From a virus (lineage: Duplodnaviria; Caudoviricetes), in IMG/VR virus record IMGVR_UViG_3300027983_000019, positions 1 to 58,109 of that record: 58,109 nt of DNA; one strand, written 5' to 3'. The notes below the pieces were generated by a model, which did no database searches, was not told where the DNA came from, and worked only from the letters and a program-made list of their open reading frames with translations. Both the position numbers and the translations under genes were made by a program. This document shows positions 1,460 to 49,388 of the stretch, one piece after another; the first letter of the stretch is position 1, and each line of letters starts with the position of its first letter.

Positions 1460-3472
1460 ATGAAAGTAGAAGACTTTTTAACTGACCCAAAAACCGTTGA
1501 GTTGGTATTATCATCTATTAATAAAAAAGTAACACTCCCTAATAGTGGGTTTCTTGCTGGTGGTTCTGTCGCTAACATGTTGTTATCACTATATCATAGT
1601 GGGACACCTTCTATGTTTAAAATTAATGATGTTGATATATTCATACCACAAGACCAATTAACCACAGATGAGTTAGAAGGGGAAGATATGTTACGATGTG
1701 ATGTGACATTTAATCTTGAACTTCATCAGGATGGTGATGAAGATTATGGTCAGATTTATGTAGAGAATGACGGCACATACTATAGGGTTATATCAAGTAA
1801 GAGAGATGGTCTGATTAATAATGTAAAATGTGTTATTGAACATGGTCAAACAGGTGGGACACATAGATACACACCCAATGGTGATGAAGGACAATTAATG
1901 ATACCAGTAACAAAACGTGATGCGGTAATACCGAATAATGACCCCGATAATGAAATTATATTAAGGGGTTTTGATTTAAATTGTTGTCAAGTTGGTGTTG
2001 ACCTTAAAAATAACCAAATATATTACACAAAGGATTTTGTTAATTTTTTAAAATCTAAACAAGTTTTAGTTAACATACCACACACACCATTTCATACAGC
2101 ATTAAGATTAATTAAAAAAATGAAAATGTATGGTGACTTTTGTTATTGTGATGTTGATTATGAAATCAAATATTTATATCACGCTGAAGGTTTAGATGGT
2201 TCTTGTCAGTTTTTTGGTAAAGAAAATTATGATAAGTTTATTGAAAACAAAGATGCATTAAAAAAATATCTTGAAGTAAGTGAGGTTAAGATAGAAAACA
2301 TGCCACACGAATATAGAAAAAAATACTTTCCTAAGTCATATGTATCACCTACTATGTCCTTTTTACAACCACGGGATAACTATATAAAAACTGAGATGAT
2401 TGAAGGTAGGGAGTTATGGAGATACACTTTTATTAATAACGATGATTTTATTGATGATGTGTGTGATAACTTGTGGGAATTAAAAAGAATATGGGAACTT
2501 AAACATAGAAACCTTAAAAAGACACAAGTAAGAAAAATTAATACAATCATGAATTATGGGAATCATAACTTACTTAAAACCCAAAAATATATCAGTGGTG
2601 ATTCTGATATAACCTATTTAATAATGTGTCTAATGACCATTGATGATTATTATAATTGTGATTTTACCGTTGGTCATCTTAAAGAAATAGATAGATTTAT
2701 TAAAGAACACGGTGGATTAAAAGGGTTAATCTCTAAATGTAAAACTGTACAAGAACAATATAACAATGTTAAGATGATTAAGAGGTTATCTAAATTGGAA
2801 GGTGATTGGGTTATCGGTGTATTGGAGACCCTTGGTGTTAGTAAAATGACCAACAACACCATTATTAACAAAGAGTGGATTGATAGTCTCGTAAAGGAGG
2901 AAAAAAATAGAATGTTAACACCATTGGTTAAAGCACTTAATTTAGATAACTTTAAATATAAAAAAAATATTACAGAATTGGTCATACCATTAGAATTAAG
3001 GTTGGAAGGTGAAAAAATGGGACATTGTGTTGGTGGTTATTCACACAATATAATAGATGGTAATTCAAGAATATTTAATATTAATATTGGTGGTGTTCAG
3101 TCAACACTCGAAATTAGTTTAACTAAACAGAACAACGACCCATGGTCTATCTCAGATGGGAAACCAAATGGTGAAAAATACTTTAAAATTAAACAACATA
3201 GTGGTAGATATCCAGAGAAAAAAGGTAATCACACACCCACAAACAAATGTAGGGGTGTGGCCTTTAAATTAGTCTATTACTTATCTAAACAAGAAATGTC
3301 TTGTGATGAATATCGTGATATGTTCACAAATAAACCATATAAACAATATTATGAAACAAATAGTGTGTTAGTTAAAAATAGTTGGTGGGAGATTGTAAAT
3401 GACAACCACAAACGTAAAAACAACCCAAATAAGAAAAAAAAGAATAACTATGGTGGGTGGATGTTAGGTTAA
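1460..3472 (+). CDS. Nucleotidyltransferase-like N-terminal domain fused to a PcfJ-like C-terminal domain
   Basis: FLAGGSV...NDVDIF and FDLNCCQVG motifs (pol-beta superfamily NTase); LRLEGEKMGHCVGGY motif (PcfJ-like). Confidence 0.6.
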   Translation: MKVEDFLTDPKTVELVLSSINKKVTLPNSGFLAGGSVANMLLSLYHSGTPSMFKINDVDIFIPQDQLTTDELEGEDMLRCDVTFNLELHQDGDEDYGQIYVENDGTYYRVISSKRDGLINNVKCVIEHGQTGGTHRYTPNGDEGQLMIPVTKRDAVIPNNDPDNEIILRGFDLNCCQVGVDLKNNQIYYTKDFVNFLKSKQVLVNIPHTPFHTALRLIKKMKMYGDFCYCDVDYEIKYLYHAEGLDGSCQFFGKENYDKFIENKDALKKYLEVSEVKIENMPHEYRKKYFPKSYVSPTMSFLQPRDNYIKTEMIEGRELWRYTFINNDDFIDDVCDNLWELKRIWELKHRNLKKTQVRKINTIMNYGNHNLLKTQKYISGDSDITYLIMCLMTIDDYYNCDFTVGHLKEIDRFIKEHGGLKGLISKCKTVQEQYNNVKMIKRLSKLEGDWVIGVLETLGVSKMTNNTIINKEWIDSLVKEEKNRMLTPLVKALNLDNFKYKKNITELVIPLELRLEGEKMGHCVGGYSHNIIDGNSRIFNINIGGVQSTLEISLTKQNNDPWSISDGKPNGEKYFKIKQHSGRYPEKKGNHTPTNKCRGVAFKLVYYLSKQEMSCDEYRDMFTNKPYKQYYETNSVLVKNSWWEIVNDNHKRKNNPNKKKKNNYGGWMLG

Positions 3473-3687
3473 ATAACCTCCACCCCATCCTCAACACAAA
3501 CTTGTAGTTTTCCATTTTCTAAAATGACTTCAACAATGGGAACACCATCGGGGTATTGTTTAATTAACCTAGGGTCTTGTATGTGTTTAGTTGGTATTTT
3601 ATATGTGTCACTAACCCTACCCTTTAACGGTGGGTTATAACCTTTAATTAATACATTATCGTTTCTTTTCATTTTTTTTAATATCAA
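3469..3687 (-). CDS. Hypothetical protein
   Basis: 72-aa ORF coupled to the upstream minus-strand ORF. Confidence 0.6.
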   Translation of the reverse strand: MILKKMKRNDNVLIKGYNPPLKGRVSDTYKIPTKHIQDPRLIKQYPDGVPIVEVILENGKLQVCVEDGVEVI

Positions 3688-4234
3688 AATATATGTTAGA
3701 CATCCTTAGGTCAGTATTTGAACCACCAAATGGTATTGGTTCGTTATCATAGTAAACTTCGGATATTAATGAATTTATAATAACTTCATTATTTTCATTG
3801 TGAACCTCTTTACGGATAAACTTTAATTTACGAATATTGAAATAACCATCAATCATAAATAAGATGTCAGATATTAAACCTGAATGTTCTTGTATTGTTG
3901 TCATAACGATATCAGTGGTGTCTGGGTAAACATAACCGGTATCTTCTAATACACAAGCACCCCCATCATCAAAACACATGGATTCTAAAACAGTTATAGG
4001 TAAATCCATGACCACTTCATCGTTAACCGTTATTAATATATCACCACTTGTAATCCCATAATCCTGTTGTAAATCTATTCTTTTCCATTTCTTCCCTAAG
4101 TATTTATATAGTCCTTTAACCCATATATCATCTAATGTGTTTGACTGTTCTATTTTCTCATATTCTTCATTTGTTATTAGGCCTCTCGATACTTCGCACC
4201 CGTAACCCGATAAGATTATTCTTACAATGTCCAT
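3656..4234 (-). CDS. Hypothetical protein
   Basis: 192-aa ORF. Confidence 0.75.
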   Translation of the reverse strand: MDIVRIILSGYGCEVSRGLITNEEYEKIEQSNTLDDIWVKGLYKYLGKKWKRIDLQQDYGITSGDILITVNDEVVMDLPITVLESMCFDDGGACVLEDTGYVYPDTTDIVMTTIQEHSGLISDILFMIDGYFNIRKLKFIRKEVHNENNEVIINSLISEVYYDNEPIPFGGSNTDLRMSNIYFDIKKNEKKR

Positions 4235-8299: not shown

Positions 8300-9514
8300 A
8301 TGATAATAAATAGTTTAATAGACTTAGATATCTACAAAATTACGATGATGCAACTAGCATATTTTAAACATCGTAATGTTGAAGTTGAATACAACTTTAA
8401 GAACAGGTCAAAAGATGTGAACCTTTTGGAGTACGTTAACATGGATGATTTAGTTAAGGAATTAGAACACGTAACCACGTTAAAAATGTCTGGTCGTGAA
8501 ATTGATACACTTAAAGAAACTGGATTATTTAAAGAGGAATTCTTGGATTTTTTAAGTAATCTAACACTACCTATGGTTAATGTAACAAAATCAATTCCAT
8601 TCAATACCTACGACATTAATGTTAGTGGTAATTGGTGTGATGTTATTTTGTGGGAGACATTAATACTATCCATCATTAATGAGTTATACCATAAGTCACA
8701 AATTAAAGATACATACCATATGGAAAGTACATACAATGAAGGTATGGATAGACTATATAGTAAGATTGAAAAGTTAAGGGGTGGTAAATATCGGTTTACT
8801 GAGTTCGGAACTAGACGAAGGTTTAGTAGAGAATGGCAGGAAATGGTTGTTAAAACACTTAAAAGGGAACACGATAACACCTTTGGTGGAATTGGTTTCC
8901 AAGGGACATCCAACGTTTATTTAGCAATGAAATTACACATACCATGTGTTGGGACATTCGCTCATGAAATGCCAATGGTTTATTCAGGTATTTACAATGA
9001 TGACCTAATCAGTTCACATAGAAAAATGTTAGATGACTGGTATGATTTTTATGGTAAGAGACTATCAATAGCTCTTACCGACACATATGGTAGTAAATTC
9101 TTTTTCGAGGACTTTACAGCAGAACAGGCAAGAGATTGGGATGGTTTCAGACAAGATAGTGGTGACCCATTTGTTTTCGGTGAAGAAGCTGAGGCTTTTT
9201 ATATCAGTAAAATGGTCGACCCAACAAATAAAGTTGTGGTATTCTCCGATGGACTTAATGTTGATAAAATTATAAAATTGGGTAATACGTTCAGGGGTAG
9301 AATTCAAACATTATTCGGATGGGGTACGAACTTATCAAATGATGTTGGATATCACACCTTATCAATGGTAGTTAAAGCGACGAAAGCTAATGGTCACGGA
9401 ACTGTTAAGTTGAGTGATAATCTGAATAAAGCTATTGGTACACCTGAAAACATAAAAAGGTTTACAGAAACCTTCGGATACACAAATAAAAATAAAGAAG
9501 AATTAATAAATTAA
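8300..9514 (+). CDS. pncB: Nicotinate phosphoribosyltransferase
   Basis: DLDIYKITMMQ, EFGTRRRFS, GTSNV, GTFAHE, LTDTYG, RQDSGDP, FSDGL and VKLSD motifs. Confidence 0.92.
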   Translation: MIINSLIDLDIYKITMMQLAYFKHRNVEVEYNFKNRSKDVNLLEYVNMDDLVKELEHVTTLKMSGREIDTLKETGLFKEEFLDFLSNLTLPMVNVTKSIPFNTYDINVSGNWCDVILWETLILSIINELYHKSQIKDTYHMESTYNEGMDRLYSKIEKLRGGKYRFTEFGTRRRFSREWQEMVVKTLKREHDNTFGGIGFQGTSNVYLAMKLHIPCVGTFAHEMPMVYSGIYNDDLISSHRKMLDDWYDFYGKRLSIALTDTYGSKFFFEDFTAEQARDWDGFRQDSGDPFVFGEEAEAFYISKMVDPTNKVVVFSDGLNVDKIIKLGNTFRGRIQTLFGWGTNLSNDVGYHTLSMVVKATKANGHGTVKLSDNLNKAIGTPENIKRFTETFGYTNKNKEELIN

Positions 9515-10738: not shown

Positions 10739-11093
10739 TCGATTCACAACATTTTTAAAAAACTTAACCTTCGTCGTAAGACCAAGGTATTGGTTGATGA
10801 ATTATCAATATAGTAAATCATGGGATATTAAACTAAATAAGTTATTAGATGAACACACATTTACAATAATAGGCCGACACACTGCTAAATTAGGTCCTAT
10901 TGATTTATGGATATCTAATTACCCATACGGTTCATACAGAAACCCATCGTACATTTGTAGACCATCGAGATTAACAATAATAAGATGTTGTAAAAAGTTA
11001 AAAAAGGACCAATACAATATAAATAACCCACCAAAAATCAATAAAATATCACCTAAAAAATATATAATCAGTTTTAAATTCGTTAACACATGA
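10713..11093 (+). CDS. Hypothetical protein
   Basis: ORF in the same operon; may start at an internal Met. Confidence 0.6.
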   Translation: MTSLKTMVNRFTTFLKNLTFVVRPRYWLMNYQYSKSWDIKLNKLLDEHTFTIIGRHTAKLGPIDLWISNYPYGSYRNPSYICRPSRLTIIRCCKKLKKDQYNINNPPKINKISPKKYIISFKFVNT

Positions 11094-23757: not shown

Positions 23758-23791
23758 AAAAAACCCTCGACTTGTTATGGTCGAGGGTTTT
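23758..23791 (-). terminator. Attenuator terminator of tRNA operon A
   Basis: AACCCTCGAC/GTCGAGGGTT stem plus T-run. Confidence 0.85.
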
Positions 23792-23822
23792 AGTTTTAAA
23801 TTAATATCTTTTAATATTTAAC

Positions 23823-23915
23823 TTAATACCTAAGGTCTCGACAATTGTGGTTATAACCACAATCAGTTCCCGCTTTCGCGTCACTCGGTTTATATGTCGG
23901 TTTATTAGTTATCAT
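23823..23915 (-). CDS. Leader peptide A: MITNKPTYKPSDAKAGTDCGYNHNCRDLRY
   Basis: Translated by hand; lies between a promoter (23950-23980) and a terminator; core enriched in K, P, Y, D, A, G, C. Confidence 0.8.
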   Translation of the reverse strand: MITNKPTYKPSDAKAGTDCGYNHNCRDLRY

Positions 23916-24090
23916 TGTTTTTGTTTTTTCTTTGTTTATAAATATAGTACAAATGTAGTAAAAGTTATCTTGTAAGTCAAGTATTTTTTTAATTTATTTT
24001 AATATTTCTTTTTTTCCTTTAATTTAGGTCTTAAACCCTCGTTTCTGATACAAATATAAATAACTTATTTTGATAAATCAAGATAAATCT

Positions 24091-25470: not shown

Positions 25471-25812
25471 ATGAACATTAGAAAAATAATAAAGGAGGAG
25501 ATTGATAACTTTGATTGGTTTGATGAGGGTGAAACTCCATTATCGCGGTTAATTGATAATTTTGGTGATTTGACACCGGTTGTTAGGGGTAATCTAACAT
25601 TCTATGCTGATAATAATAATAATAATAAAACAATTTTTTATTATTATCAGGATGAAGAAAATGGACTTTGTTATATTAATTATGATGAAATATGGTCAGT
25701 TTTGGAGTCTCGTTTTGGGATTAACTATAAGGAAATTCAGGTGGTTATAACCAAGTGGTTGGATGAGGTATACGGATTAACGGGACTCACACCTTCAAAA
25801 TCGATTTGGTGA
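25471..25812 (+). CDS. Array-associated small protein paralog
   Basis: MNIRKIIKEEIDNFDW...WLDEVYGLTGLTP-SKSIW. Confidence 0.9.
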   Translation: MNIRKIIKEEIDNFDWFDEGETPLSRLIDNFGDLTPVVRGNLTFYADNNNNNKTIFYYYQDEENGLCYINYDEIWSVLESRFGINYKEIQVVITKWLDEVYGLTGLTPSKSIW

Positions 25813-25904
25813 AATAGTTGAAGGTTGGATGAGGTATACGGAATAACGGGACTTACACCGTACTCTGGAGAATCTTCTGTTTACTTGGCGTTGGATGAGG
25901 TATA
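25758..25904 (+). CRISPR. CRISPR-like mini-array: 2 full and 1 partial 36-bp repeats, two 30-bp spacers
   Basis: Repeats 25758-25793, 25824-25859, 25890-25904. Confidence 0.6.
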
Positions 25905-25932
25905 AAAATAATATGTTAAACTGAAAATAATT

Positions 25933-26280
25933 ATGAACATCAAAAAAATAATAAAAGAAGAAATTAATAATTTCGATTGGTTTGATGAGGGTGAAACACC
26001 ACTATCGTGGTTAATCGATAATTTTGGGGATTTAAAACCAGTTGTTGATGGTAATAAAATCACTTATGTTAATGATAATAATAAAATATTCTTTTATTAT
26101 TATCAGGATAAAAAAAATGGATATTGTTATATTAAATATGGTGAAATATGGTCAGTTTTGGATTCCCGTTTTGGAATTAACGATACTGAAATTATGGAAG
26201 TTACAACCACATGGTTGGATGAGGTCTACGGAATAACGGGACTCATACCCATAAGTTACGGTTCCCATTGCAGCATCTAG
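25933..26280 (+). CDS. Array-associated small protein paralog
   Basis: MNIKKIIKEEINNFDW...WLDEVYGITGLIP-ISYGSHCSI. Confidence 0.9.
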   Translation: MNIKKIIKEEINNFDWFDEGETPLSWLIDNFGDLKPVVDGNKITYVNDNNKIFFYYYQDKKNGYCYIKYGEIWSVLDSRFGINDTEIMEVTTTWLDEVYGITGLIPISYGSHCSI

Positions 26281-26381
26281 TTGGATGAGGTATACGGAAT
26301 AACTGGACTCACACCTTTAAGTTGGTGGTGATACAACTTCTTCATGTTGGATGAGGTCTACGGAATAGTGGGGTGTACACC
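26214..26381 (+). CRISPR. CRISPR-like mini-array: 3 x 36-bp repeats, two 30-bp spacers
   Basis: Repeats 26214-26249, 26280-26315, 26346-26381 (last degenerate). Confidence 0.6.
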
Positions 26382-26418
26382 ATTAAAATCAAATAAGTAT
26401 TAAGTTATTTTTAATTAG

Positions 26419-26492
26419 TGTACCAGGAGGGATTCGAACCCCCGACCTTATGGTCCGTAACCATATGCTCTATCCAACTGAGCTACAAGTAC
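26419..26492 (-). tRNA. tRNA-Arg(ACG)
   Basis: TATGG-TTACGGA-CCATA. Confidence 0.9.
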
Positions 26493-26536
26493 ATTGTCAT
26501 AATCGTTAGTGATTAACTCACAACATTATGTTATAG

Positions 26537-26608
26537 TAGACATGGAGGGAGTTGAGCCCTCTTAACTAAGGTATAAGCTTAGCGTAATAACCCTTATACG
26601 ACATGTCC
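26537..26608 (-). tRNA. tRNA-Ile(TAT)
   Basis: CTAAG-CTTATAC-CTTAG. Confidence 0.8.
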
Positions 26609-26610
26609 AT

Positions 26611-26701
26611 TGGTAGAGGGTATGGGATTTGAACCCATGCGTCGTTTAACCGACCTAATAACTTTCCAAGTTATCCTCTTAAGCCACTTGAGTAACCCTC
26701 T
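26611..26701 (-). tRNA. tRNA-Ser(GGA)
   Basis: ATAAC-TTGGAAA-GTTAT, long variable arm, encoded CCA. Confidence 0.88.
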
Positions 26702-26753
26702 ATTTTATTTTCTTCCCATACATATAAATATGTGGGAAGTACAAAAACGACCA

Positions 26754-26846
26754 TGGCGGAAGACAAGGGGATTGAACCCTCACTACCCATTAAGGGTAGA
26801 CTTGTTTAGCAGACAAGCTCAACGAACCAATATTTGACTATCTTCC
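26754..26846 (-). tRNA. tRNA-Ser(GCT)
   Basis: CTTGT-CTGCTAA-ACAAG, long variable arm, encoded CCA. Confidence 0.88.
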
Positions 26847-27755
26847 ATTAGTGTGTAGATTATTTATGTACTTAATAATTTTATTAGTTTCTTCTATTAT
26901 AAATTTTTTATGACTTGTTAAATCTTTAACTATATATAATTTTATACCTAATATCTCACATTCTTTTATTTTCTGTTTATCTTTTTCTTTTGTTTTAATT
27001 AAAGAACCATCACCTCTAATGTCTTTGTAGTGGTATATACCATTCCACTCAATACCAAAATTCAATGAGGGTATATAAACATCTAATTCACGATTACCCA
27101 TTAGTGTTAACCTATCATTAAATAAAATAGTTAAATTAGGGAAATAAGTGTTTAGTTCATTTTCTAAATATATTTCAGGTTTAGACCTAAGACCATTTAT
27201 TAATTTATTATTTATTTTATTTCTACACACACCACCACAATATTTTCTTCTATTTAATTGTGTTTTAGTTAACCATAATTTTTTATCACAAACCGGACAA
27301 GTAAACTCAACCTTTGGTTTTGTTAATTTTTCACTTATTTTTCGTTTTATTTCGTTACACTTTTTATCATCAAATCTATCACACAGTTTAACACCTTTTA
27401 AATTGACACTAACTGAGTTTCTTATATTAATTAACCCTTGCTTTGATAGTGTGTACACACTCAATACTCTATCTCTATTAGTTGACGAAGCCGAACAACT
27501 GTGTCCACAATATTTATTACCCCTCACTTCGTATGGTATTACCTCAGAACAATATTCACACATTTTTGGTTCAATGTAATACTTTTCCTTATTCTTTCGA
27601 AGTGTTGTTGTTGTATGTTCACGACCTAATCTCACCATTTTCTCATACGATTTACCTTTATTTGGGTTTTTATCACAATTGACTACATGTGACCCAGCGT
27701 GTTTAGGCGTTTTAATTTCCACCTCACCACAGAATTTACATTCATATTTACACAT
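26838..27755 (-). CDS. Putative free-standing homing endonuclease (zinc-finger repeats plus PD-(D/E)XK/Vsr-like domain) inside tRNA operon B
   Basis: Multiple CxxC and YCxxxC motifs; ELDVYIPSLNFGIEWNGIYHY. Confidence 0.75.
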   Translation of the reverse strand: MCKYECKFCGEVEIKTPKHAGSHVVNCDKNPNKGKSYEKMVRLGREHTTTTLRKNKEKYYIEPKMCEYCSEVIPYEVRGNKYCGHSCSASSTNRDRVLSVYTLSKQGLINIRNSVSVNLKGVKLCDRFDDKKCNEIKRKISEKLTKPKVEFTCPVCDKKLWLTKTQLNRRKYCGGVCRNKINNKLINGLRSKPEIYLENELNTYFPNLTILFNDRLTLMGNRELDVYIPSLNFGIEWNGIYHYKDIRGDGSLIKTKEKDKQKIKECEILGIKLYIVKDLTSHKKFIIEETNKIIKYINNLHTNGR

Positions 27756-27799
27756 ATTACTTTATATATAAATATGCACGTGACACCCAAAACGAATAG

Positions 27800-27870
27800 C
27801 ACAAACGGTTTTAATCGAAAAAACTCGTGAAGCTTTTGGAGAGCCCACCGACACCAAGCCTGTCGTTTGT
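27800..27870 (-). tRNA. tRNA-Trp(CCA), divergent D arm
   Basis: Acceptor ACAAACG/CGTTTGT, anticodon arm GGGCT-CTCCAAA-AGCTT, T-arm GTTTT-TTCGATT-AAAAC. Confidence 0.7.
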
Positions 27871-27875
27871 ATTTG

Positions 27876-27948
27876 TTGTGTCGTAGGGAGTCGAACCCTA
27901 TTATTCTATCTTATCAGGATAGCCACTAAACCGTCCATGCCCGACACA
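27876..27948 (-). tRNA. tRNA-Ile(GAT)
   Basis: CTATC-CTGATAA-GATAG. Confidence 0.8.
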
Positions 27949-27955
27949 ATGTTTG

Positions 27956-28026
27956 CTCTCCGTGGTGGTACTGACCCACCTTCCTCTGATTAACAATCAG
28001 GAGCTTCACTTTAAAGCTTACGAAGA
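27956..28026 (-). tRNA. tRNA-Asn(GTT)
   Basis: CTGA-TTGTTAA-TCAG. Confidence 0.8.
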
Positions 28027-28064
28027 GTATTTCAATTATAAGGTTGGTGACTTATAACGTATTG

Positions 28065-28136
28065 CGGACTGGGAGAATAACGATATCTCGGCCTTCACCT
28101 TAACAGGGTGTTGCTCTTCCTCTGAGCTACCAATCC
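28065..28136 (-). tRNA. tRNA-Asn(GTT)
   Basis: CACC-CTGTTAA-GGTG. Confidence 0.82.
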
Positions 28137-28149
28137 TTTTTTACTTTAG

Positions 28150-28237
28150 CGGAGAGCGGAGGAACCGACCCCCGTACCCTTTCGCGTAGCCTAGGTTTCA
28201 AATCTAGTCGCATCTCCATGACACTGCTTCACTCTCC
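28150..28237 (-). tRNA. tRNA-Ser(TGA)
   Basis: CTAGA-TTTGAAA-CCTAG, long variable arm. Confidence 0.8.
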
Positions 28238-28247
28238 ATTATTTTTG

Positions 28248-28320
28248 GGTGTATGAGGAATTACGATATCCCGACCTTCGATTCCACAAACCGACACTCT
28301 TCCTCTGAGCTACACACACC
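28248..28320 (-). tRNA. tRNA-His(GTG)
   Basis: TCGGT-TTGTGGA-ATCGA, extra 5' G. Confidence 0.85.
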
Positions 28321-28324
28321 ATTT

Positions 28325-28495
28325 TTAATCCAGTTCAACAAAAATTATCATCTTACCTTTTTCTTTTTTAAACTTTAACTCCCCATGGTATCCACCTTGG
28401 TCAGCCTTTTCTCTGTGTTCATCCAAGATTTTATCAAAGTTATCTTGGAACTCCTTTATTTTTACCTCACCTATTTTTCTAACTAAATCACCCAT
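28325..28495 (-). CDS. Small hypothetical protein at the head of tRNA operon B
   Basis: MGDLVRKIGE...; start at 28495 lies downstream of the terminator. Confidence 0.55.
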   Translation of the reverse strand: MGDLVRKIGEVKIKEFQDNFDKILDEHREKADQGGYHGELKFKKEKGKMIIFVELD

Positions 28496-28506
28496 AATGT
28501 CTATGT

Positions 28507-28542
28507 AAAAAAAAATCCCCACCTCGGTTTGAGATGGGGATT
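28507..28542 (-). terminator. Attenuator terminator of tRNA operon B
   Basis: AATCCCCATCTC/GAGGTGGGGATT stem plus T-run. Confidence 0.85.
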
Positions 28543-28567
28543 AAGTAGTTATTTTATTAACTATTAA

Positions 28568-28645
28568 TTACACACATCTCGTCATCTTCGTTATCCACGA
28601 ATTACGACTGATATTAATATTATGTATGTTATTATTAGTTTTCAT
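28568..28645 (-). CDS. Leader peptide B: MKTNNNIHNINISRNSWITKMTRCV
   Basis: Translated by hand; lies between a promoter (28681-28711) and a terminator; codons 4-18 are only N, I, H, S, R, W. Confidence 0.85.
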   Translation of the reverse strand: MKTNNNIHNINISRNSWITKMTRCV

Positions 28646-28730
28646 TTTCTTTTGTTTTTTCCTTGTTTATAAATATACTACAAATATAGTAAAAGTTTAC
28701 CGTTGTGTCAAGTGTTTTTTAATTTATTTT

Positions 28731-29216
28731 CTATTTTTTTTTGTTTTCGGTCTTTACACCCTCTTTAAGTGAGTTTATTGTGTCTAATAAACTTGATGCT
28801 TCCTCATAATTTTCTTCATAAACAGCTTCATCTAATTTATTTTGTAATAAATTGATAATAATTTCGGGTGCCAATTCTTGGTCCACCATCTTATTTCTAT
28901 TTTCATTATTGTAGAATTCCTCAGGTGACATTGATATGGTATATATACTAACACTAGTATTATCACCATCTGTTGTTCCACTATATGAGTTATAACCATC
29001 AACATTAAGACCAGTTGCATCTAACCCAAATGGGTTGTTATTCATACCCCACATTAATTTCATTATCTCTTCATAACGATTTTCATAACCACCTATAATA
29101 CCTAAAAACTTTTTCTTAAAGTCGTCATCAGCCATTCTTTCTCTGAATAGTTTATTTAATTTTTCCCTATCAAAGTTTCCAAACTCATCAAATTCATCAT
29201 CATTAAATTCATTCAT
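28731..29216 (-). CDS. Protein with a C-terminal UvrB/UvrC (UVR) motif
   Basis: KLDEAVYEENYEEASSLLDTINSL. Confidence 0.75.
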   Translation of the reverse strand: MNEFNDDEFDEFGNFDREKLNKLFRERMADDDFKKKFLGIIGGYENRYEEIMKLMWGMNNNPFGLDATGLNVDGYNSYSGTTDGDNTSVSIYTISMSPEEFYNNENRNKMVDQELAPEIIINLLQNKLDEAVYEENYEEASSLLDTINSLKEGVKTENKKK

Positions 29217-29843: not shown

Positions 29844-29912
29844 TAATTAAGGTTGGACTCGAACCAACGACCTCCCCTAAAGGATTGCTCTAACCAACTG
29901 AGCTACTTAATC
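29844..29912 (-). ncRNA. tRNA-like RNA with a shrunken anticodon arm
   Basis: Canonical D and T arms; anticodon arm reduced to TCC-TTTA-GGG. Confidence 0.6.
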
Positions 29913-30160: not shown

Positions 30161-30230
30161 TGTTGGGTGGGGGTGTCGAACCCTCATCTCCCGCCTGTGG
30201 CGAGTGTCCTAGCCATTAAACGAACCCAAC
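30161..30230 (-). ncRNA. tRNA-like RNA with a 3-5-nt anticodon loop
   Basis: CTCGCC-ACA-GGCGGG. Confidence 0.6.
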
Positions 30231-30298: not shown

Positions 30299-30767
30299 TG
30301 GTACGGGTGGATGGACTCGAACCACCAAAAACTACTTTTCGGATTACTCTTACTTTTCGTCCACCTCGTCATGGGTTACCCCAAACAAGGCGTGTTTACC
30401 AATTTCACCACACCCGCTTATGTAGTTATTTAACATTGGTACGGAAGAAGGGACTCGAACCCCTAAAAACTACTTTTCAGATTACTCTTACTTTTTCGTT
30501 CACTACCCTAAAGAATAGCGTGTTTACCAATTTCACCACTTCCGTAGTTAAGTCTATACCCCCTCATCCCTCTTCTAATCTTGGGGGTTCCACCTTGTGG
30601 GGTGGATGTGTTTTCATCAAATTCCGTTCAGGTAACGTATTGATTACTATTATTGACTTAGTACATGAGGATGGAATCGAACCATCAAGAACTACTTTTC
30701 AGATTACTCTTACTTTTTCGTTCACTACCCTAAAGAATAGCGTGTTTACCAATTTCACCACTCATGT
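30299..30767 (-). ncRNA. Three related tRNA-Leu-like RNAs with aberrant anticodon arms and a conserved long A-rich variable region
   Basis: Copies at 30299-30417, 30437-30545 and 30662-30767 share GTGGTGAAATTGGTAAACACG and CGAAAA(A)GTAAGAGTAATCYGAAAAGTAGTT; acceptor and T stems covary. Confidence 0.7.
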
Positions 30768-30926: not shown

Positions 30927-31214
30927 TTAAGTAGACAAGTACTTTTTAAAATTTAATTTATTTGGTATTTTATCACCGATATAAATTAACGCCACTGAGT
31001 TAGTTGGAACAATCCCTTTTAGTTCCTCTCTCATCATCCTCTTTATTCTGTTTCTATCAACCGCTCTCTTAAACTTCTTAGAACTAACGGTAAATAAGTA
31101 ACCAGGTGTACCATCTGTAACAATTTTAATTAATACATTGTCCACCACTTTGTTTTTAGCTTCCACACTGAATAACCTATCAATATCTTTATTCTGTTTT
31201 AAACTATACTTCAT
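30927..31214 (-). CDS. rnpA: Ribonuclease P protein component
   Basis: RNR motif VSSKKFKRAVDRNRIKRMMRE. Confidence 0.85.
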   Translation of the reverse strand: MKYSLKQNKDIDRLFSVEAKNKVVDNVLIKIVTDGTPGYLFTVSSKKFKRAVDRNRIKRMMREELKGIVPTNSVALIYIGDKIPNKLNFKKYLST

Positions 31215-34552: not shown

Positions 34553-34575
34553 ATATTACCAATAAATCAAAGAAC

Positions 34576-34614
34576 AAAAAAAAACCCGAACTCAATAATT
34601 TGAATTCGGGTTTG
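34576..34614 (-). terminator. Attenuator terminator of tRNA operon C
   Basis: AAACCCGAATTCA/TGAGTTCGGGTTT stem plus T-run. Confidence 0.85.
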
Positions 34615-34636
34615 TTTGATTGTATATCTTAAATTG

Positions 34637-34735
34637 TCATGAGACATTAGACACACCAAACCCGAATACAGTTTGTAACTGTACCATAAAGACTTGCGTC
34701 AGGGTAAATAAAGATATGTTTGTTAATGTTTTCAT
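34637..34735 (-). CDS. Leader peptide C: MKTLTNISLFTLTQVFMVQLQTVFGFGVSNVS
   Basis: Translated by hand; lies between a promoter (34771-34801) and a terminator; codons 9-24 are only L, F, T, Q, V, M. Confidence 0.85.
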   Translation of the reverse strand: MKTLTNISLFTLTQVFMVQLQTVFGFGVSNVS

Positions 34736-34810
34736 TTTGTTTTTAATTTTCTTTGTTTATAAATATACTACAAATATAGTAAAAGTTCTCTTATAAGTCA
34801 AGTATTTTTT

Positions 34811-42467: not shown

Positions 42468-44105
42468 TTACTGAGTTACCTCAACGACAGAGACGTTAGT
42501 TTCCACTTCATCCCATGCGTCTATTAGTACCTTAGCGAACTGACTTTCTTTCCCAGTCCACCCTGACAATATAGCTCCTCTATATAAATTTTCAGGAACA
42601 ACCGAGTTATTATATCCAGCTGTTTGTATCGTAAACATATTAACCTTCGGGTTAACATCTTTCCTATACCTCTCAACTAATTTAAGAACATCGATGTAGT
42701 TCCCATAACTAGTACCACCATAAATATAGTCTTTATAGTCACTTCGGTTTATCCCAAACAACGAACCGTGTCCAGCTTGTTGGTCTGAGTATATAAAGAT
42801 ATTGTCGTAGTGAACTTTGTTTTCGATTGCCTCCTTGAAGAACAACCAAATACCATTTTCAGTTCTTGGACCTTGTTTTTTACCTCGTTCTTTGGTTTCT
42901 TTCATTTGAGATAAGATACCATTTCTTTTCGAAACAGGTTTTAAATCTAGTTTATCACCGAAAACGCCAACCTCACCTTCATCAGATTGTATCGCGGTAA
43001 TTATACTAGACAAGTTACCTATATCAGCAACAGTAACAGTACCATATTCAGAATTAAAAGAACCCCAAGCCGAACCAGAGTTATCAGATAAACAAACTGT
43101 TTTACCCTTTAATTTAGGTAAATTTTTCACCGAAATATCAAGACACTCTTCAAGTGCATCTTTCAATAGACCTTCGTGATTAACACCTTCAATAGCTTTG
43201 AACGCTGAGTAATATCTAAAAGGGAATTGTTTACCGTAAAGTACACCGCCTTTTAATTTTTCACACACATCTTTAGTGAATAGTAGGTCATTAACCTCTG
43301 TGAAGATACCTCTAAGATTTATTAGTAAAGCCATATGAGGTATTTTGATTGTATCAAAAATCTCTTTCCATGTTTTACCTTCGGACCTTAAACTTTCCCA
43401 TGTTCGTGAACTTTCTTCCACAGTGACATTACCCGTAGTCATCATCTCTGTAATGACATCTGATTTAGCGTGAGAAATTCTCACTAAATCTATAAGTCCT
43501 TTGGATTTATACTTATTCATTCTGTAAGCGTCGAACTCACCTAACGCGTCAGCCCAAACCCTTTTTACGATTGACGGTAAACCCTTTTTGGTCACATTTA
43601 ACCACATGTAGTAGTCAAACTGATTTGTGATGTCATCAGGTCTGATAATAAGTTCAGAACCAATTTTTCTCATAACACCAGGGTTTTCTTTGTTAAATTC
43701 AACCCTTCCTTCGTGTCTTGCTGCTCTAATAAATATTACAGCTGGGTTCATCCTCATGAAATACTCGTGTCTTAAAGTACGAGCTAATTCCAAAGTCCCC
43801 ATAAAGTTTTCAGTTAATGCCTCATCAATACACTTAGTAAAAACATCTGTTGTTGTTTCAACTTCATCGTCAGAATATAACCCAAGTACGTCATTCTTCA
43901 TAATAGTCTGAATATTGGTTGGTTTATCGTGTGATGCTTTGTAGTAAGATGGTTCACCGAATATTGAACTCCCAGCTACAATCCTTAACGTGTCTAATGG
44001 TTTTAAGGTATAAGATGTACCTCCCATAAAATTTGTTACGGACGTTCCTTCGTGTGTTCTAATACTCGACACTGTTTTCTTAGAAGATTTTGAAAATTTA
44101 CTCAT
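42468..44105 (-). CDS. Ro60/TROVE-domain RNA-binding protein
   Basis: TWES, IPHMALLINLR, QFPFRYYSA and vWA MIDAS-like CLSDNSGS motifs. Confidence 0.9.
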   Translation of the reverse strand: MSKFSKSSKKTVSSIRTHEGTSVTNFMGGTSYTLKPLDTLRIVAGSSIFGEPSYYKASHDKPTNIQTIMKNDVLGLYSDDEVETTTDVFTKCIDEALTENFMGTLELARTLRHEYFMRMNPAVIFIRAARHEGRVEFNKENPGVMRKIGSELIIRPDDITNQFDYYMWLNVTKKGLPSIVKRVWADALGEFDAYRMNKYKSKGLIDLVRISHAKSDVITEMMTTGNVTVEESSRTWESLRSEGKTWKEIFDTIKIPHMALLINLRGIFTEVNDLLFTKDVCEKLKGGVLYGKQFPFRYYSAFKAIEGVNHEGLLKDALEECLDISVKNLPKLKGKTVCLSDNSGSAWGSFNSEYGTVTVADIGNLSSIITAIQSDEGEVGVFGDKLDLKPVSKRNGILSQMKETKERGKKQGPRTENGIWLFFKEAIENKVHYDNIFIYSDQQAGHGSLFGINRSDYKDYIYGGTSYGNYIDVLKLVERYRKDVNPKVNMFTIQTAGYNNSVVPENLYRGAILSGWTGKESQFAKVLIDAWDEVETNVSVVEVTQ

Positions 44106-49190: not shown

Positions 49191-49224
49191 AAAAAAAATC
49201 CGATTATTTCTAATCGGATTTTTT
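49191..49224 (-). terminator. Attenuator terminator of tRNA operon D
   Basis: AAAATCCGATTA/TAATCGGATTTT stem plus T-run. Confidence 0.85.
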
Positions 49225-49249
49225 AAAGTTTATATAATACAATATTACT

Positions 49250-49312
49250 TCATATCCGATGTGAATAAGTCTCTCTTTCTTCTCTTCTCTCTATGTTAGT
49301 AATTATTGTCAT
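49250..49312 (-). CDS. Leader peptide D: MTIITNIERREERETYSHRI
   Basis: Translated by hand; core GAG AGA AGA GAA GAA AGA GAG; lies between a promoter (49340-49369) and a terminator. Confidence 0.88.
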   Translation of the reverse strand: MTIITNIERREERETYSHRI

Positions 49313-49388
49313 TGTTTCTTGTTTTTTATAAGTATACTACAAATATAGTAAAAGTATTCTAATTGTCAAGTATTATTTTTTTTATTTT

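Follow-up and report, generated by a model that had tools for sequence, protein, structure and literature searches.

The window analysed here is a virus record of IMG/VR (IMGVR_UViG_3300027983_000019; 58,109 base pairs (bp), ~31% G+C, estimated to be 18% complete), the transfer RNA (tRNA) genes of which were located with ARAGORN and all lie on the minus strand, in four clusters. The subject of this report is the leader region of one of these clusters, operon B, in which a short open reading frame (ORF) and an intrinsic terminator precede the tRNA genes, together with the corresponding regions of operons A, C and D. Read along the minus strand, operon B consists of a promoter, an A-rich stretch of 35 nucleotides (nt), a 25-codon ORF, an A+T-rich spacer of 25 nt, the terminator, a 57-codon ORF and ten tRNA genes. 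The elements of the leader module are as follows:

28681-28711 (minus strand): operon B promoter, with TTGACA (28711-28706), a 17-nt spacer and TATATT(TG) (28688-28681).
28568-28645 (minus strand): leader ORF B, with ATG at 28645-28643 and TAA at 28570-28568; 25 codons and stop; peptide MKTNNNIHNINISRNSWITKMTRCV.
28592-28636 (minus strand): putative regulatory run, codons 4-18, with codons for Asn, Ile (three codons), His, Ser (AGY and TCG), Arg (CGT) and Trp.
28581-28608 (minus strand): hairpin within ORF B, GUCGU..UUCGU / ACGAA..AUGAC, the 3′ end of which adjoins the antiterminator strand.
28575-28580 (minus strand): candidate antiterminator strand GAGATG, which copies part of the terminator 3′ arm and is complementary to CATCTC in the 5′ arm.
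28507-28542 (minus strand): intrinsic terminator B, composed of AATCCCCATCTC, the loop AAACC, GAGGTGGGGATT and a T run; hairpin proper at 28542-28514.
28325-28498 (minus strand): 57-codon ORF between terminator B and the first tRNA gene.

The promoter agrees with the consensus at 11 of 12 positions and is the top sigma-70-like match (28711-28683) within 26300-28800; its second hexamer extends to TATATTTG. Within the same interval, the terminator is the sole terminator-like site on the minus strand. Its hairpin comprises 12 pairs, six of them G-C, with an energy of -17.1 kcal/mol, and CATCTC is located in the 5′ arm at 28540-28531. The hairpin within the leader ORF, already pointed out in a preliminary description of this DNA, was found again in the minimum-free-energy fold computed without a ribosome (28608-28581), and it may serve as a pause or anti-antiterminator element. 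The 57-codon ORF matched none of the Pfam families and is not present at the equivalent place in relatives.

The tRNA genes of operon B were identified with ARAGORN and with the Rfam tRNA model. All ten anticodons named in the preliminary description were recovered, with uneven support:

28248-28320 (minus strand): tRNA-His(GUG); Rfam 40.8 bits (match 28248-28319), anticodon GUG in the alignment, aberrant T arm.
28149-28237 (minus strand): tRNA-Ser(UGA)-like gene, non-canonical; ARAGORN at the 70% threshold only.
28064-28136 (minus strand): first tRNA-Asn(GUU); Rfam 46.7 bits.
27955-28026 (minus strand): second tRNA-Asn(GUU); Rfam 32.9 bits.
27875-27948 (minus strand): tRNA-Ile(GAU); Rfam 37.8 bits, ARAGORN at the 80% threshold.
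27799-27870 (minus strand): tRNA-Trp(CCA), divergent; ARAGORN at the 80% threshold only.
26838-27755 (minus strand): ORF of 305 amino acids (aa) that splits the tRNA array; no Pfam match.
26754-26846 (minus strand): tRNA-Ser(GCU); ARAGORN, and in Rfam the tRNA-Sec model only (35.7 bits).
26611-26701 (minus strand): tRNA-Ser(GGA); ARAGORN, Rfam 54.7 bits.
26536-26608 (minus strand): tRNA-Ile(UAU); ARAGORN, Rfam 54.0 bits.
26418-26492 (minus strand): tRNA-Arg(ACG); ARAGORN, Rfam 63.7 bits.

With default settings, ARAGORN called Arg(acg), Ile(tat), Ser(gga), Ser(gct) and one Asn(gtt) in operon B, and eight of the ten genes passed either these settings or the Rfam gathering threshold (29 bits). 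The tRNA-His gene was called by ARAGORN at neither default nor relaxed thresholds. Trp(CCA) and Ser(UGA) proved weaker than had been described, both being non-canonical, found by relaxed ARAGORN only and without an Rfam tRNA match at E<=10 (region 26380-28340). A homologue of the Ser(UGA)-like gene occupies the same place in two related loci (L053 and L064), where changes in the anticodon stem compensate each other, and a canonical Trp tRNA (58.9 bits) is found at the matching position in the gene order of an IMG/VR relative. The 305-aa ORF is probably a homing-endonuclease-like insert; GIY-YIG- or HNH-like ORFs occur at comparable places in related operons. The T arms of the His gene (28248-28319) and of the first Asn gene (28065-28136), both on the minus strand, read GAUAUCGUNAUUC against the consensus GGUUCGAAUCC, and non-canonical pairs are flagged there by Infernal.

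Codons 4-18 of the leader were found on the minus strand (28636-28592) exactly as previously listed, and every one of them is decoded by the tRNAs of operon B. The codons read by these tRNAs (B set) number 17 and make up 24.7% of the codons in 26 long ORFs. The resulting run of 15 B-set codons is the longest across the six frames of the window, the runner-up measuring 12, and its length was reached in 0 of 60 random windows generated with a first-order Markov model (longest run 9.2 on average, 14 at most). The earlier claim that fifteen successive leader codons are read by the tRNAs of the same operon is thereby borne out.

The ~30-nt promoter block is present in four copies in the window, all on the minus strand and each upstream of a tRNA cluster; a repeat search returned these copies as families D3, D5 and D6, and a control with the reversed pattern gave 0 matches in the window. 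All four copies (A, B, C and D) are followed by a leader ORF, a terminator and a tRNA cluster, those other than B being:

23764-23964 (minus strand): module A, with promoter block, leader at 23915-23823 (MITNKPTYKPSDAKAGTDCGYNHNCRDLRY) and terminator at 23787-23764.
34585-34785 (minus strand): module C, with promoter block, leader at 34735-34637 (MKTLTNISLFTLTQVFMVQLQTVFGFGVSNVS) and terminator at 34610-34585.
49199-49354 (minus strand): module D, with promoter block, leader at 49312-49250 (MTIITNIERREERETYSHRI) and terminator at 49218-49199.

Each window leader is spelled in codons of its own operon. Operon A encodes Tyr, Pro, Asp, Gly, Ala, Cys and Lys tRNAs, and the leader stretch upstream reads KPTYKPSDAKAGTDCGY; operon C encodes Gln, Thr, Phe, Thr, Val, Leu, Leu and Met tRNAs. 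Operon D encodes Glu(UUC) and Arg(UCU) only, and its leader contains the stretch ERREERE, in which seven GAR/AGR (Glu/Arg) codons stand in a row; no longer run of this kind occurs in the window, and a length of seven was reached in 0 of 60 random windows. Because modules A, C and D repeat both the layout and the match, the correspondence between codons and tRNAs in B is one instance of a rule.

The same arrangement was searched for in other genomes. An exact scan with the promoter pattern gave 72 sites, four in the window, two in an IMG/VR relative (G001) and 66 in the metagenome. At 35 of these sites, a tRNA gene follows on the same strand within 600 nt; they yielded 26 unique leader peptides, which were grouped at >=50% ungapped identity into 14 sequence types, each represented by the member with the most tRNAs. 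The other 37 sites, mostly chance matches in coding sequence, were set aside because no same-strand default ARAGORN tRNA lies within 600 nt. For these comparisons tRNA clusters were split at gaps >1200 nt, and four-letter anticodon calls were dropped; L039 and L068 are truncated at contig ends. A leader ORF lies between promoter and terminator at 35/35 tRNA-followed sites (the leader of L049 having been picked by hand), and a hairpin with a T run is present in 14/14 type representatives. In the metagenome (64 loci with 66 pattern matches), a tRNA array starts 220-505 nt downstream of 29 of the 66 sites, and at these 29 an ORF of 20-33 codons and a terminator are placed between promoter and array.

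The make-up of the operons differs among these phages, and the composition of the leader shifts along with it. In G001, the B-type leader, MKTINVHMISISNWGRNSHHV..., is followed by tRNA genes for His, Ser, Asn, Ile(GAU), Trp, Ser and Arg, and the A-type leader, MKNYKTYKGCDAKADKGCDY..., by tRNA genes for Lys, Tyr, Asp, Gly, Gly, Ala and Cys. Operon A of the window has a tRNA-Pro gene and two CCG codons in its leader, and the A-type operon and leader of G001 are without both; likewise, the Ile(UAU) gene and the two ATA codons of window B are both missing from the B-type operon and leader of G001. Further combinations of tRNA sets and leader cores were found in the following loci:

L043 / L065 / L073: tRNAs for Ile, Asn, Tyr, Trp, Phe, Pro, Gln, His, Ser, Met, Arg and Cys; leader core QNIHNRNQWYPCFISR.
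L033 / L061 / L072: tRNAs for Phe, Trp, Lys, His, Arg and Ser; leader core HKHFSKSSKWFS.
L049: tRNAs for Thr, Gly and Glu; leader core EITTTGNTITGGGEET.
L053 / L064 (B-type): B-type tRNA set; leader core NWHNISSIHSNRINSS.

A search of the phage collection with the F-type leader matched two uncultured megaphages, LR745206.1 (634,780 bp) and LR756502.1 (642,428 bp). The record of LR745206.1 carries no annotation; within a 100-kb stretch of it, 54 ARAGORN tRNA calls and four leader-terminator modules were obtained, and the tRNAs are partitioned differently again:

Leader ...HKNFSKSHKWFS...: His, Phe, Trp, Lys, Arg and Ser tRNAs.
Leader ...ASYESYYEEG...: Glu, Tyr, Gly, Ala and other tRNAs.
Leader MTTMNLNMTMNLTLNVVNITL.NIR..., with the stretch MNLNMTMNLTLNVVNITL: Asn, Arg, Leu, Val, Ile, Thr and Met tRNAs.
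Leader ...APVNPQPQDQDP..., with the stretch PVNPQPQDQDP: Pro, Asp and Gln tRNAs.

This phage is called a freshwater or subsurface megaphage in the part of PMC9723777 that was available. In the phage collection, leaders G and C had no match, and the UVR-motif protein encoded upstream of operon B had no tblastn match. Of the 18 pattern matches in GTDB species-representative genomes, 0 have a tRNA gene after them; most lie within one conserved coding gene of candidate-phyla bacteria. The promoter block was present in 0 of the five records searched among L012-L017, which had been found through the M42 peptidase beside operon C, and no leader was apparent by eye upstream of the tRNAs in L012, L013 and L017, where a systematic leader-ORF search was not made. 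A shorter promoter pattern, applied to viral contigs, returned L007 and L008; these are unrelated loci with no leader or tRNA 3′ of the motif and were rejected.

A further motif, TTTGAC(A/G)TATTGG (TTGATTTATTGG in the C-type loci), is located between the T run and the first tRNA gene in L024, L026, L029, L043, L053 and L064 and in the window at 34560-34585 (minus strand).

The fit between leaders and operons was quantified over the 14 types with default ARAGORN calls and strict wobble rules. The fraction of leader codons read by the tRNAs of the own operon was 0.49, versus 0.22 for other operons, and 0 of 100,000 reassignments of leaders to operons matched the observed excess; the same result was obtained with relaxed tRNA calls or extended wobble. 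The own operon ranked first or second of 14 for 13 types, and B ranked only fourth because His, Ile-GAU, Trp and Ser-UGA are absent from the default calls. Where a tRNA class is present in an operon, a corresponding codon is found in the leader in 81/83 cases, and where the class is absent, in 121/253 (odds ratio 44, p 5e-19, the Fisher p values being inflated by the relatedness of the loci, an effect that the collapse to 14 types and the permutation reduce without removing). Trp codons occur in 4/4 leaders of operons with a Trp tRNA and in 1/10 of those without; for Phe the counts are 4/4 and 0/10. This near-complete sampling of every tRNA of an operon is the most telling feature of the family. 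The signal is specific for the reading frame, with in-set codons occupying 200/396 positions in frame 0 but 84/396 when the frame is shifted by +1 and 74/396 when it is shifted by +2. In pairwise comparison, no more than 8-13 of 25-31 residues are identical among the B-type leaders of three phages, which nevertheless have the same composition.

Some properties of the tRNA calls bear on these figures. At the 80% threshold ARAGORN adds some doubtful calls (pyrrolysine, Pro-AGG, Tyr-ATA), and the statistics were also computed with default calls; the intron-mode calls, which numbered dozens and were implausible, were ignored. The tRNA-His gene of the window is missing from the ARAGORN sets, and CAT was consequently scored as non-cognate for B in the fit, class and switch counts, so that this bias runs against the hypothesis.

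The 3′ part of the ORF contains, in most leaders, a copy of the terminator 3′ arm, which is able to pair with the terminator 5′ arm. The strength of this pairing was assessed as the duplex energy relative to 300 shuffles of each ORF, with a bulge-free terminator finder that took the wrong hairpin in L049, L053b and L064; the switch counts given below were made with a finder anchored at the T run. The antiterminator is strong in C (-13.5 kcal/mol, 0/300), in D (-9.2 kcal/mol, 1/300), in the B-type leader of the relative (-13.4 kcal/mol, 4/300) and in most metagenome types.

Third positions of the leaders were also compared with those of other genes. G-ending codons in four-fold boxes amount to 13/38 in the four window leaders (23823-23915, 28568-28645, 34637-34735 and 49250-49312) versus 269/2550 in long ORFs. 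This excess is partly explained by the G+C-rich antiterminator segments and was not used as evidence; a preference for codons read by U34 tRNAs alone may also contribute to it.

Folding in the presence of a ribosome, which had been proposed in the preliminary description as a check of operon B, was carried out on transcripts that end at the terminator loop, each codon in turn being given a ribosome footprint of 28 nt; the readout was the probability (P) that the terminator 5′ arm is paired upstream. For B, P(antiterminator) stayed at 0.74-0.90 while codons 3-18 occupied the A site and fell to 0.10-0.15 for codons 19-26, so that the modelled change from antiterminator to terminator, at codon 18/19, coincides with the end of the regulatory run. 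For D, values of 0.82-0.85 were obtained up to codon 14 and of <=0.15 thereafter, the switch at 14/15 falling on the last Glu codon at the end of the Glu/Arg run. For A, P was ~0.75 up to codon 21, the last in-set codon, and 0.18-0.51 later, dropping below half of the plateau at codon 25; for C it was 0.64-0.83 up to codon 19, 0.53 at codon 20, 0.25 at codon 21 and <=0.15 at codons 22-30. A clear modelled switch was found in 11 of the 14 types. Over all 14, in-set codons account for 163/229 codons upstream of the modelled switch and 50/125 downstream of it (odds ratio 3.7, p 2e-8; this count excludes the stop codon and codons 2-4).

According to arithmetic from the coordinates, the zone in which a ribosome masks the antiterminator lies ~55-90 nt upstream of the terminator end in all four window leaders. 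A comparable distance separates ribosome and polymerase in the customary drawings of trp attenuation. The first tRNA gene begins 6-34 nt past the T run in 24 of the 26 unique leaders, window B being one of the two exceptions. Since a gap of this size leaves no room for another promoter, the tRNAs would be made only by read-through of the terminator, and a terminator at this place therefore makes sense only if it is conditional.

The module anatomy, the correspondence between codons and tRNAs, its co-variation across relatives and the predicted position of the switch were obtained from the sequence and by computation. On this basis, operons A-D are probably controlled by ribosome-mediated transcription attenuation, in which the supply of the tRNAs encoded by each operon would be sensed. 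The leader-peptide attenuator implied by the preliminary description is supported, mainly by the four modules of the window, by the co-varying leaders of relatives and by footprint-aware folding. The sequencing data listed as containing this sequence comprise 12 DNA holders and no RNA holder, a listing that is neutral as to expression. We infer that the leader is translated, that ribosomes stall within it and that the read-through is regulated in the direction set out next.

For operon B, the following course of events is proposed. The strong promoter would fire and a ribosome would start on the 25-codon leader, in which codons 4-18 would demand nearly all tRNA species encoded downstream. If an aminoacyl-tRNA is scarce, the ribosome would lag in this run, GAGATG would be left exposed and would pair with the terminator 5′ arm, and the tRNA genes would be transcribed. 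If the tRNAs are ample, the ribosome would have reached codons 19-26 by the time the polymerase completes the terminator; the antiterminator would then be covered, the hairpin would form and transcription would stop. The outcome would be a negative feedback by which each group of phage tRNAs is matched to demand. With just one to a few codons devoted to each tRNA, the leader is probably an integrator or OR-gate over the tRNAs of the operon.

For megaphage-type phages in general, this design would amount to a demand-driven tRNA homeostat, which we regard as likely: ~20-55 tRNA genes would be distributed over several operons, each leader would poll every tRNA species of its operon, and any shortfall, be it caused by heavy late-gene translation, by a mismatch with the host pool or by host anticodon nucleases that cleave tRNAs in defence, would open the gate.

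A number of observations weigh against attenuation by tRNA supply. First, the antiterminator of B is weak. The positions and the complementarity of GAGATG and CATCTC are as had been described; the pairing by itself is no better than chance (6 bp, -7.3 kcal/mol, z -0.96, reached by 48/300 shuffles), and that of A (-9.0 kcal/mol, 38/300 shuffles) is likewise not beyond chance. Second, the modelled switch is not uniform: it is absent from L029 and L055 and only brief in L061. In C, P returns to ~0.75 at codons 31-33, the antiterminator being free with a ribosome at the stop codon, and the last four to five in-set codons of the C-type leader fall within the masked zone. Third, P(antiterminator) without a ribosome is 0.45-0.78 (B 0.49, D 0.45), so that read-through may be the default state, unlike in trp. 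Fourth, the codon match of B is imperfect. Of the statement that all three Ile codons and both Ser boxes are sampled, the three Ile codons and the Ser codons AGY and TCG were found; Ser(GGA) has no strictly cognate codon in the leader, and eight of the nine distinct anticodons are sampled. Codons 6-7 (AAC ATA) recur in leaders C and D, the operons of which have no Asn or Ile tRNA. The N terminus M-[KRT]-T-x-x-N-I is common to all leaders, and because AAC ATA belongs to this shared motif, the regulatory part of B may begin some codons after codon 4. Several tRNAs of operon B (His, Asn, Ser-UGA and Trp) are non-canonical, and the gap between terminator and first tRNA gene in window B measures ~186 nt and holds the 57-codon ORF and a weak promoter-like site (9/12). 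Finally, the sensitivity to a single tRNA may be low because most tRNAs are represented by one to three codons without tandem runs.

Among the alternatives, an attenuator that mainly reports amino-acid supply, through the charging of host and phage tRNAs, and with which the tRNA genes are merely co-regulated in starvation, is considered unlikely. The anatomy of the modules is that of a classical attenuator, and the sensor in any such attenuator is the rate at which aminoacyl-tRNA arrives, which the sequence alone cannot split into charging and abundance. An extra tRNA, however, gives no relief from amino-acid starvation. Moreover, the leaders track the gene content tRNA by tRNA, isoacceptors included, with ATA accompanying Ile(UAU), AGR accompanying Arg(UCU) and Pro codons being lost with the Pro gene; this tracking is as expected if the measured product is tRNA.

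It is also conceivable, although quite improbable, that the leader is translated and its codons matter according to another logic, such as feed-forward read-through, shielding of the transcript from Rho or nucleases, or a peptide that acts in trans. The partial preference for the antiterminator in ribosome-free B and D would be compatible with such schemes, and in the C-type leaders and the B-type leader of the relative the antiterminator is free with a ribosome at the stop codon. Two findings speak against them: in most types the modelled switch coincides with the end of the regulatory run, in-set codons being concentrated upstream of it (163/229 versus 50/125), and most leaders contain a copy of the terminator 3′ arm in the 3′ part of their ORF; both fit masking by an unstalled ribosome. 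A function in trans is contradicted by the lack of sequence conservation among the leader peptides. The absence of any regulation, that is, an incidental or untranslated ORF in an A+T-rich 5′ leader followed by a constitutive, leaky terminator acting as a dampener, would accord with the frequency of Asn and Ile codons in A+T-rich DNA and with the chance-level antiterminator of B, but is hardly credible in view of the B run (0/60 random windows), the frame-specific signal, the permutation result (0/100,000), the class counts (81/83 versus 121/253) and the match to Glu/Arg-, Pro/Asp/Gln- and Phe/Trp/Lys/His-rich operons of their leaders, which are not A+T-biased in this manner.

The proposed tRNA-sensing attenuators can be set beside known systems. 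Classical attenuated biosynthetic operons are trp, his, phe, thr, leu and ilv. The modules share with them the promoter, the intrinsic terminator and a short ORF that contains regulatory codons; an alternative pairing of ORF-proximal RNA with the terminator 5′ arm, and the selection of the structure by the position of the ribosome, are predicted here by the folding model. They differ in that the regulated genes are tRNA genes, not biosynthesis or synthetase genes, so that the sensor would read the product itself; in that the leader samples up to ~12 amino acids, usually with one to three codons each, in place of a run for one amino acid; in their occurrence in phage genomes, several per genome; and in a predicted translation-free default that leans to read-through. 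The general model of leader-peptide attenuation is given in PMC1183508, of which a part was available.

The modules would also be akin to the pheM system, in that a component of the translation apparatus is placed under a leader peptide that senses cognate aminoacyl-tRNA: the pheM leader of the pheST (phenylalanyl-tRNA synthetase) operon of Escherichia coli reads the supply of its cognate aminoacyl-tRNA. Unlike the present modules, pheM concerns one amino acid, a protein enzyme as product and a cellular operon. The T-box binds uncharged tRNA directly and has no ORF; it is likewise a 5′ leader that ties terminator read-through to tRNA status, but sensing in operons A-D would proceed via the translating ribosome, and there is no T-box match at the locus. 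Leader and tRNA-sensing families in Rfam include the His, Leu, Thr and Trp leaders and the T-box. A search of Rfam at E<=1 over 20000-52000 gave no match to a leader family or T-box, and one at E<=10 covered the tRNA array 26380-28340 only.

The genomes themselves are comparable to those of huge phages and megaphages with tRNA arrays (PMC7162821, PMC9723777; both in the parts available), being very large, from uncultured phages and with dozens of tRNAs. In the accessible text of PMC7162821 (Al-Shayeb et al. 2020), tRNAs are counted, and the strings ‘attenuat’ and ‘leader’ occur 0 times each; in that of PMC9723777 (Michniewski et al. 2021), tRNA is mentioned once and no leader or attenuator is described. 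The full-text literature, in which subscription journals are thinly covered, yielded no account of phage or cellular tRNA genes being controlled by a leader peptide.

If sensing of tRNA supply by these leaders is correct, they would be the first attenuators known to control tRNA genes, the first leader peptides to integrate many amino acids and an inducible counter-measure to tRNA-targeting immunity. Why phages carry tRNA genes and by what means they control them is an old question with scant mechanistic data; the modules imply sensing by the ribosome, operon by operon, and each leader predicts which tRNAs limit translation during infection. A textbook mechanism would be extended to a new class of target genes and to viruses, with one leader able to poll a dozen tRNAs. 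The modules would constitute compact natural sensors for the availability of individual tRNAs, and small unannotated ORFs upstream of tRNA arrays in deposited megaphage genomes would hold regulatory information. The surprising aspects are the tRNA target, the multi-tRNA design and the presence in the largest known phages.

The promoter is of the TAnnTTTG type, which may point to a Bacteroidota host. Phages >634 kb are predicted to infect Bacteroidetes in the portion of PMC7162821 that was available. The promoter type and this statement on megaphage size together suggest a host from Bacteroidota only tentatively.

Several other features of the window concern RNA. An ORF of 95 aa at 30927-31214 (minus strand), within the tRNA region of operon C, matches the RNase P protein component (Pfam PF00825, E 2.7e-10), so that the phage may carry its own tRNA 5′-processing factor. 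Five tRNA-like genes on the minus strand (29844-29912, 30161-30230, 30302-30417, 30440-30545 and 30662-30767; Rfam tRNA 37-51 bits) have abnormal anticodon arms: the loop is essentially deleted in one of them, and 14-35 nt are inserted in the anticodon loop in three. A TROVE/Ro60-like RNA-binding protein of 545 aa is encoded at 42468-44105 (minus strand); its best match is gp540 of Bacillus phage G, with 51% identity. This protein was also considered as a guide to the placement of the phage, and a best match at that identity places nothing. Y-RNA-like matches in Rfam were weak only and all under threshold.

In the IMG/VR relative (L009, G001), at 3443-4029 (minus strand), a match to transfer-messenger RNA (3639-4029; 46.6 bits, gathering threshold 47) is either adjoined or interrupted by a group I intron (3443-3665; Rfam 99 bits). 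The same record contains, at 10820-10901 (minus strand), a tRNA in which a GUU (Asn) anticodon is combined, unusually, with a D arm of class-II type and a variable arm that is long.

Just downstream of operon B, on the opposite strand, five direct repeats with 66-nt spacing and 75-100% identity are located at 25758-26389 (plus strand), at and beyond the 3′ ends of the paralogous ORFs 25471-25812 and 25933-26280. Finally, a nicotinate phosphoribosyltransferase gene (Pfam E 2.5e-48), an auxiliary gene of nicotinamide adenine dinucleotide salvage, lies at 8300-9514 (plus strand).

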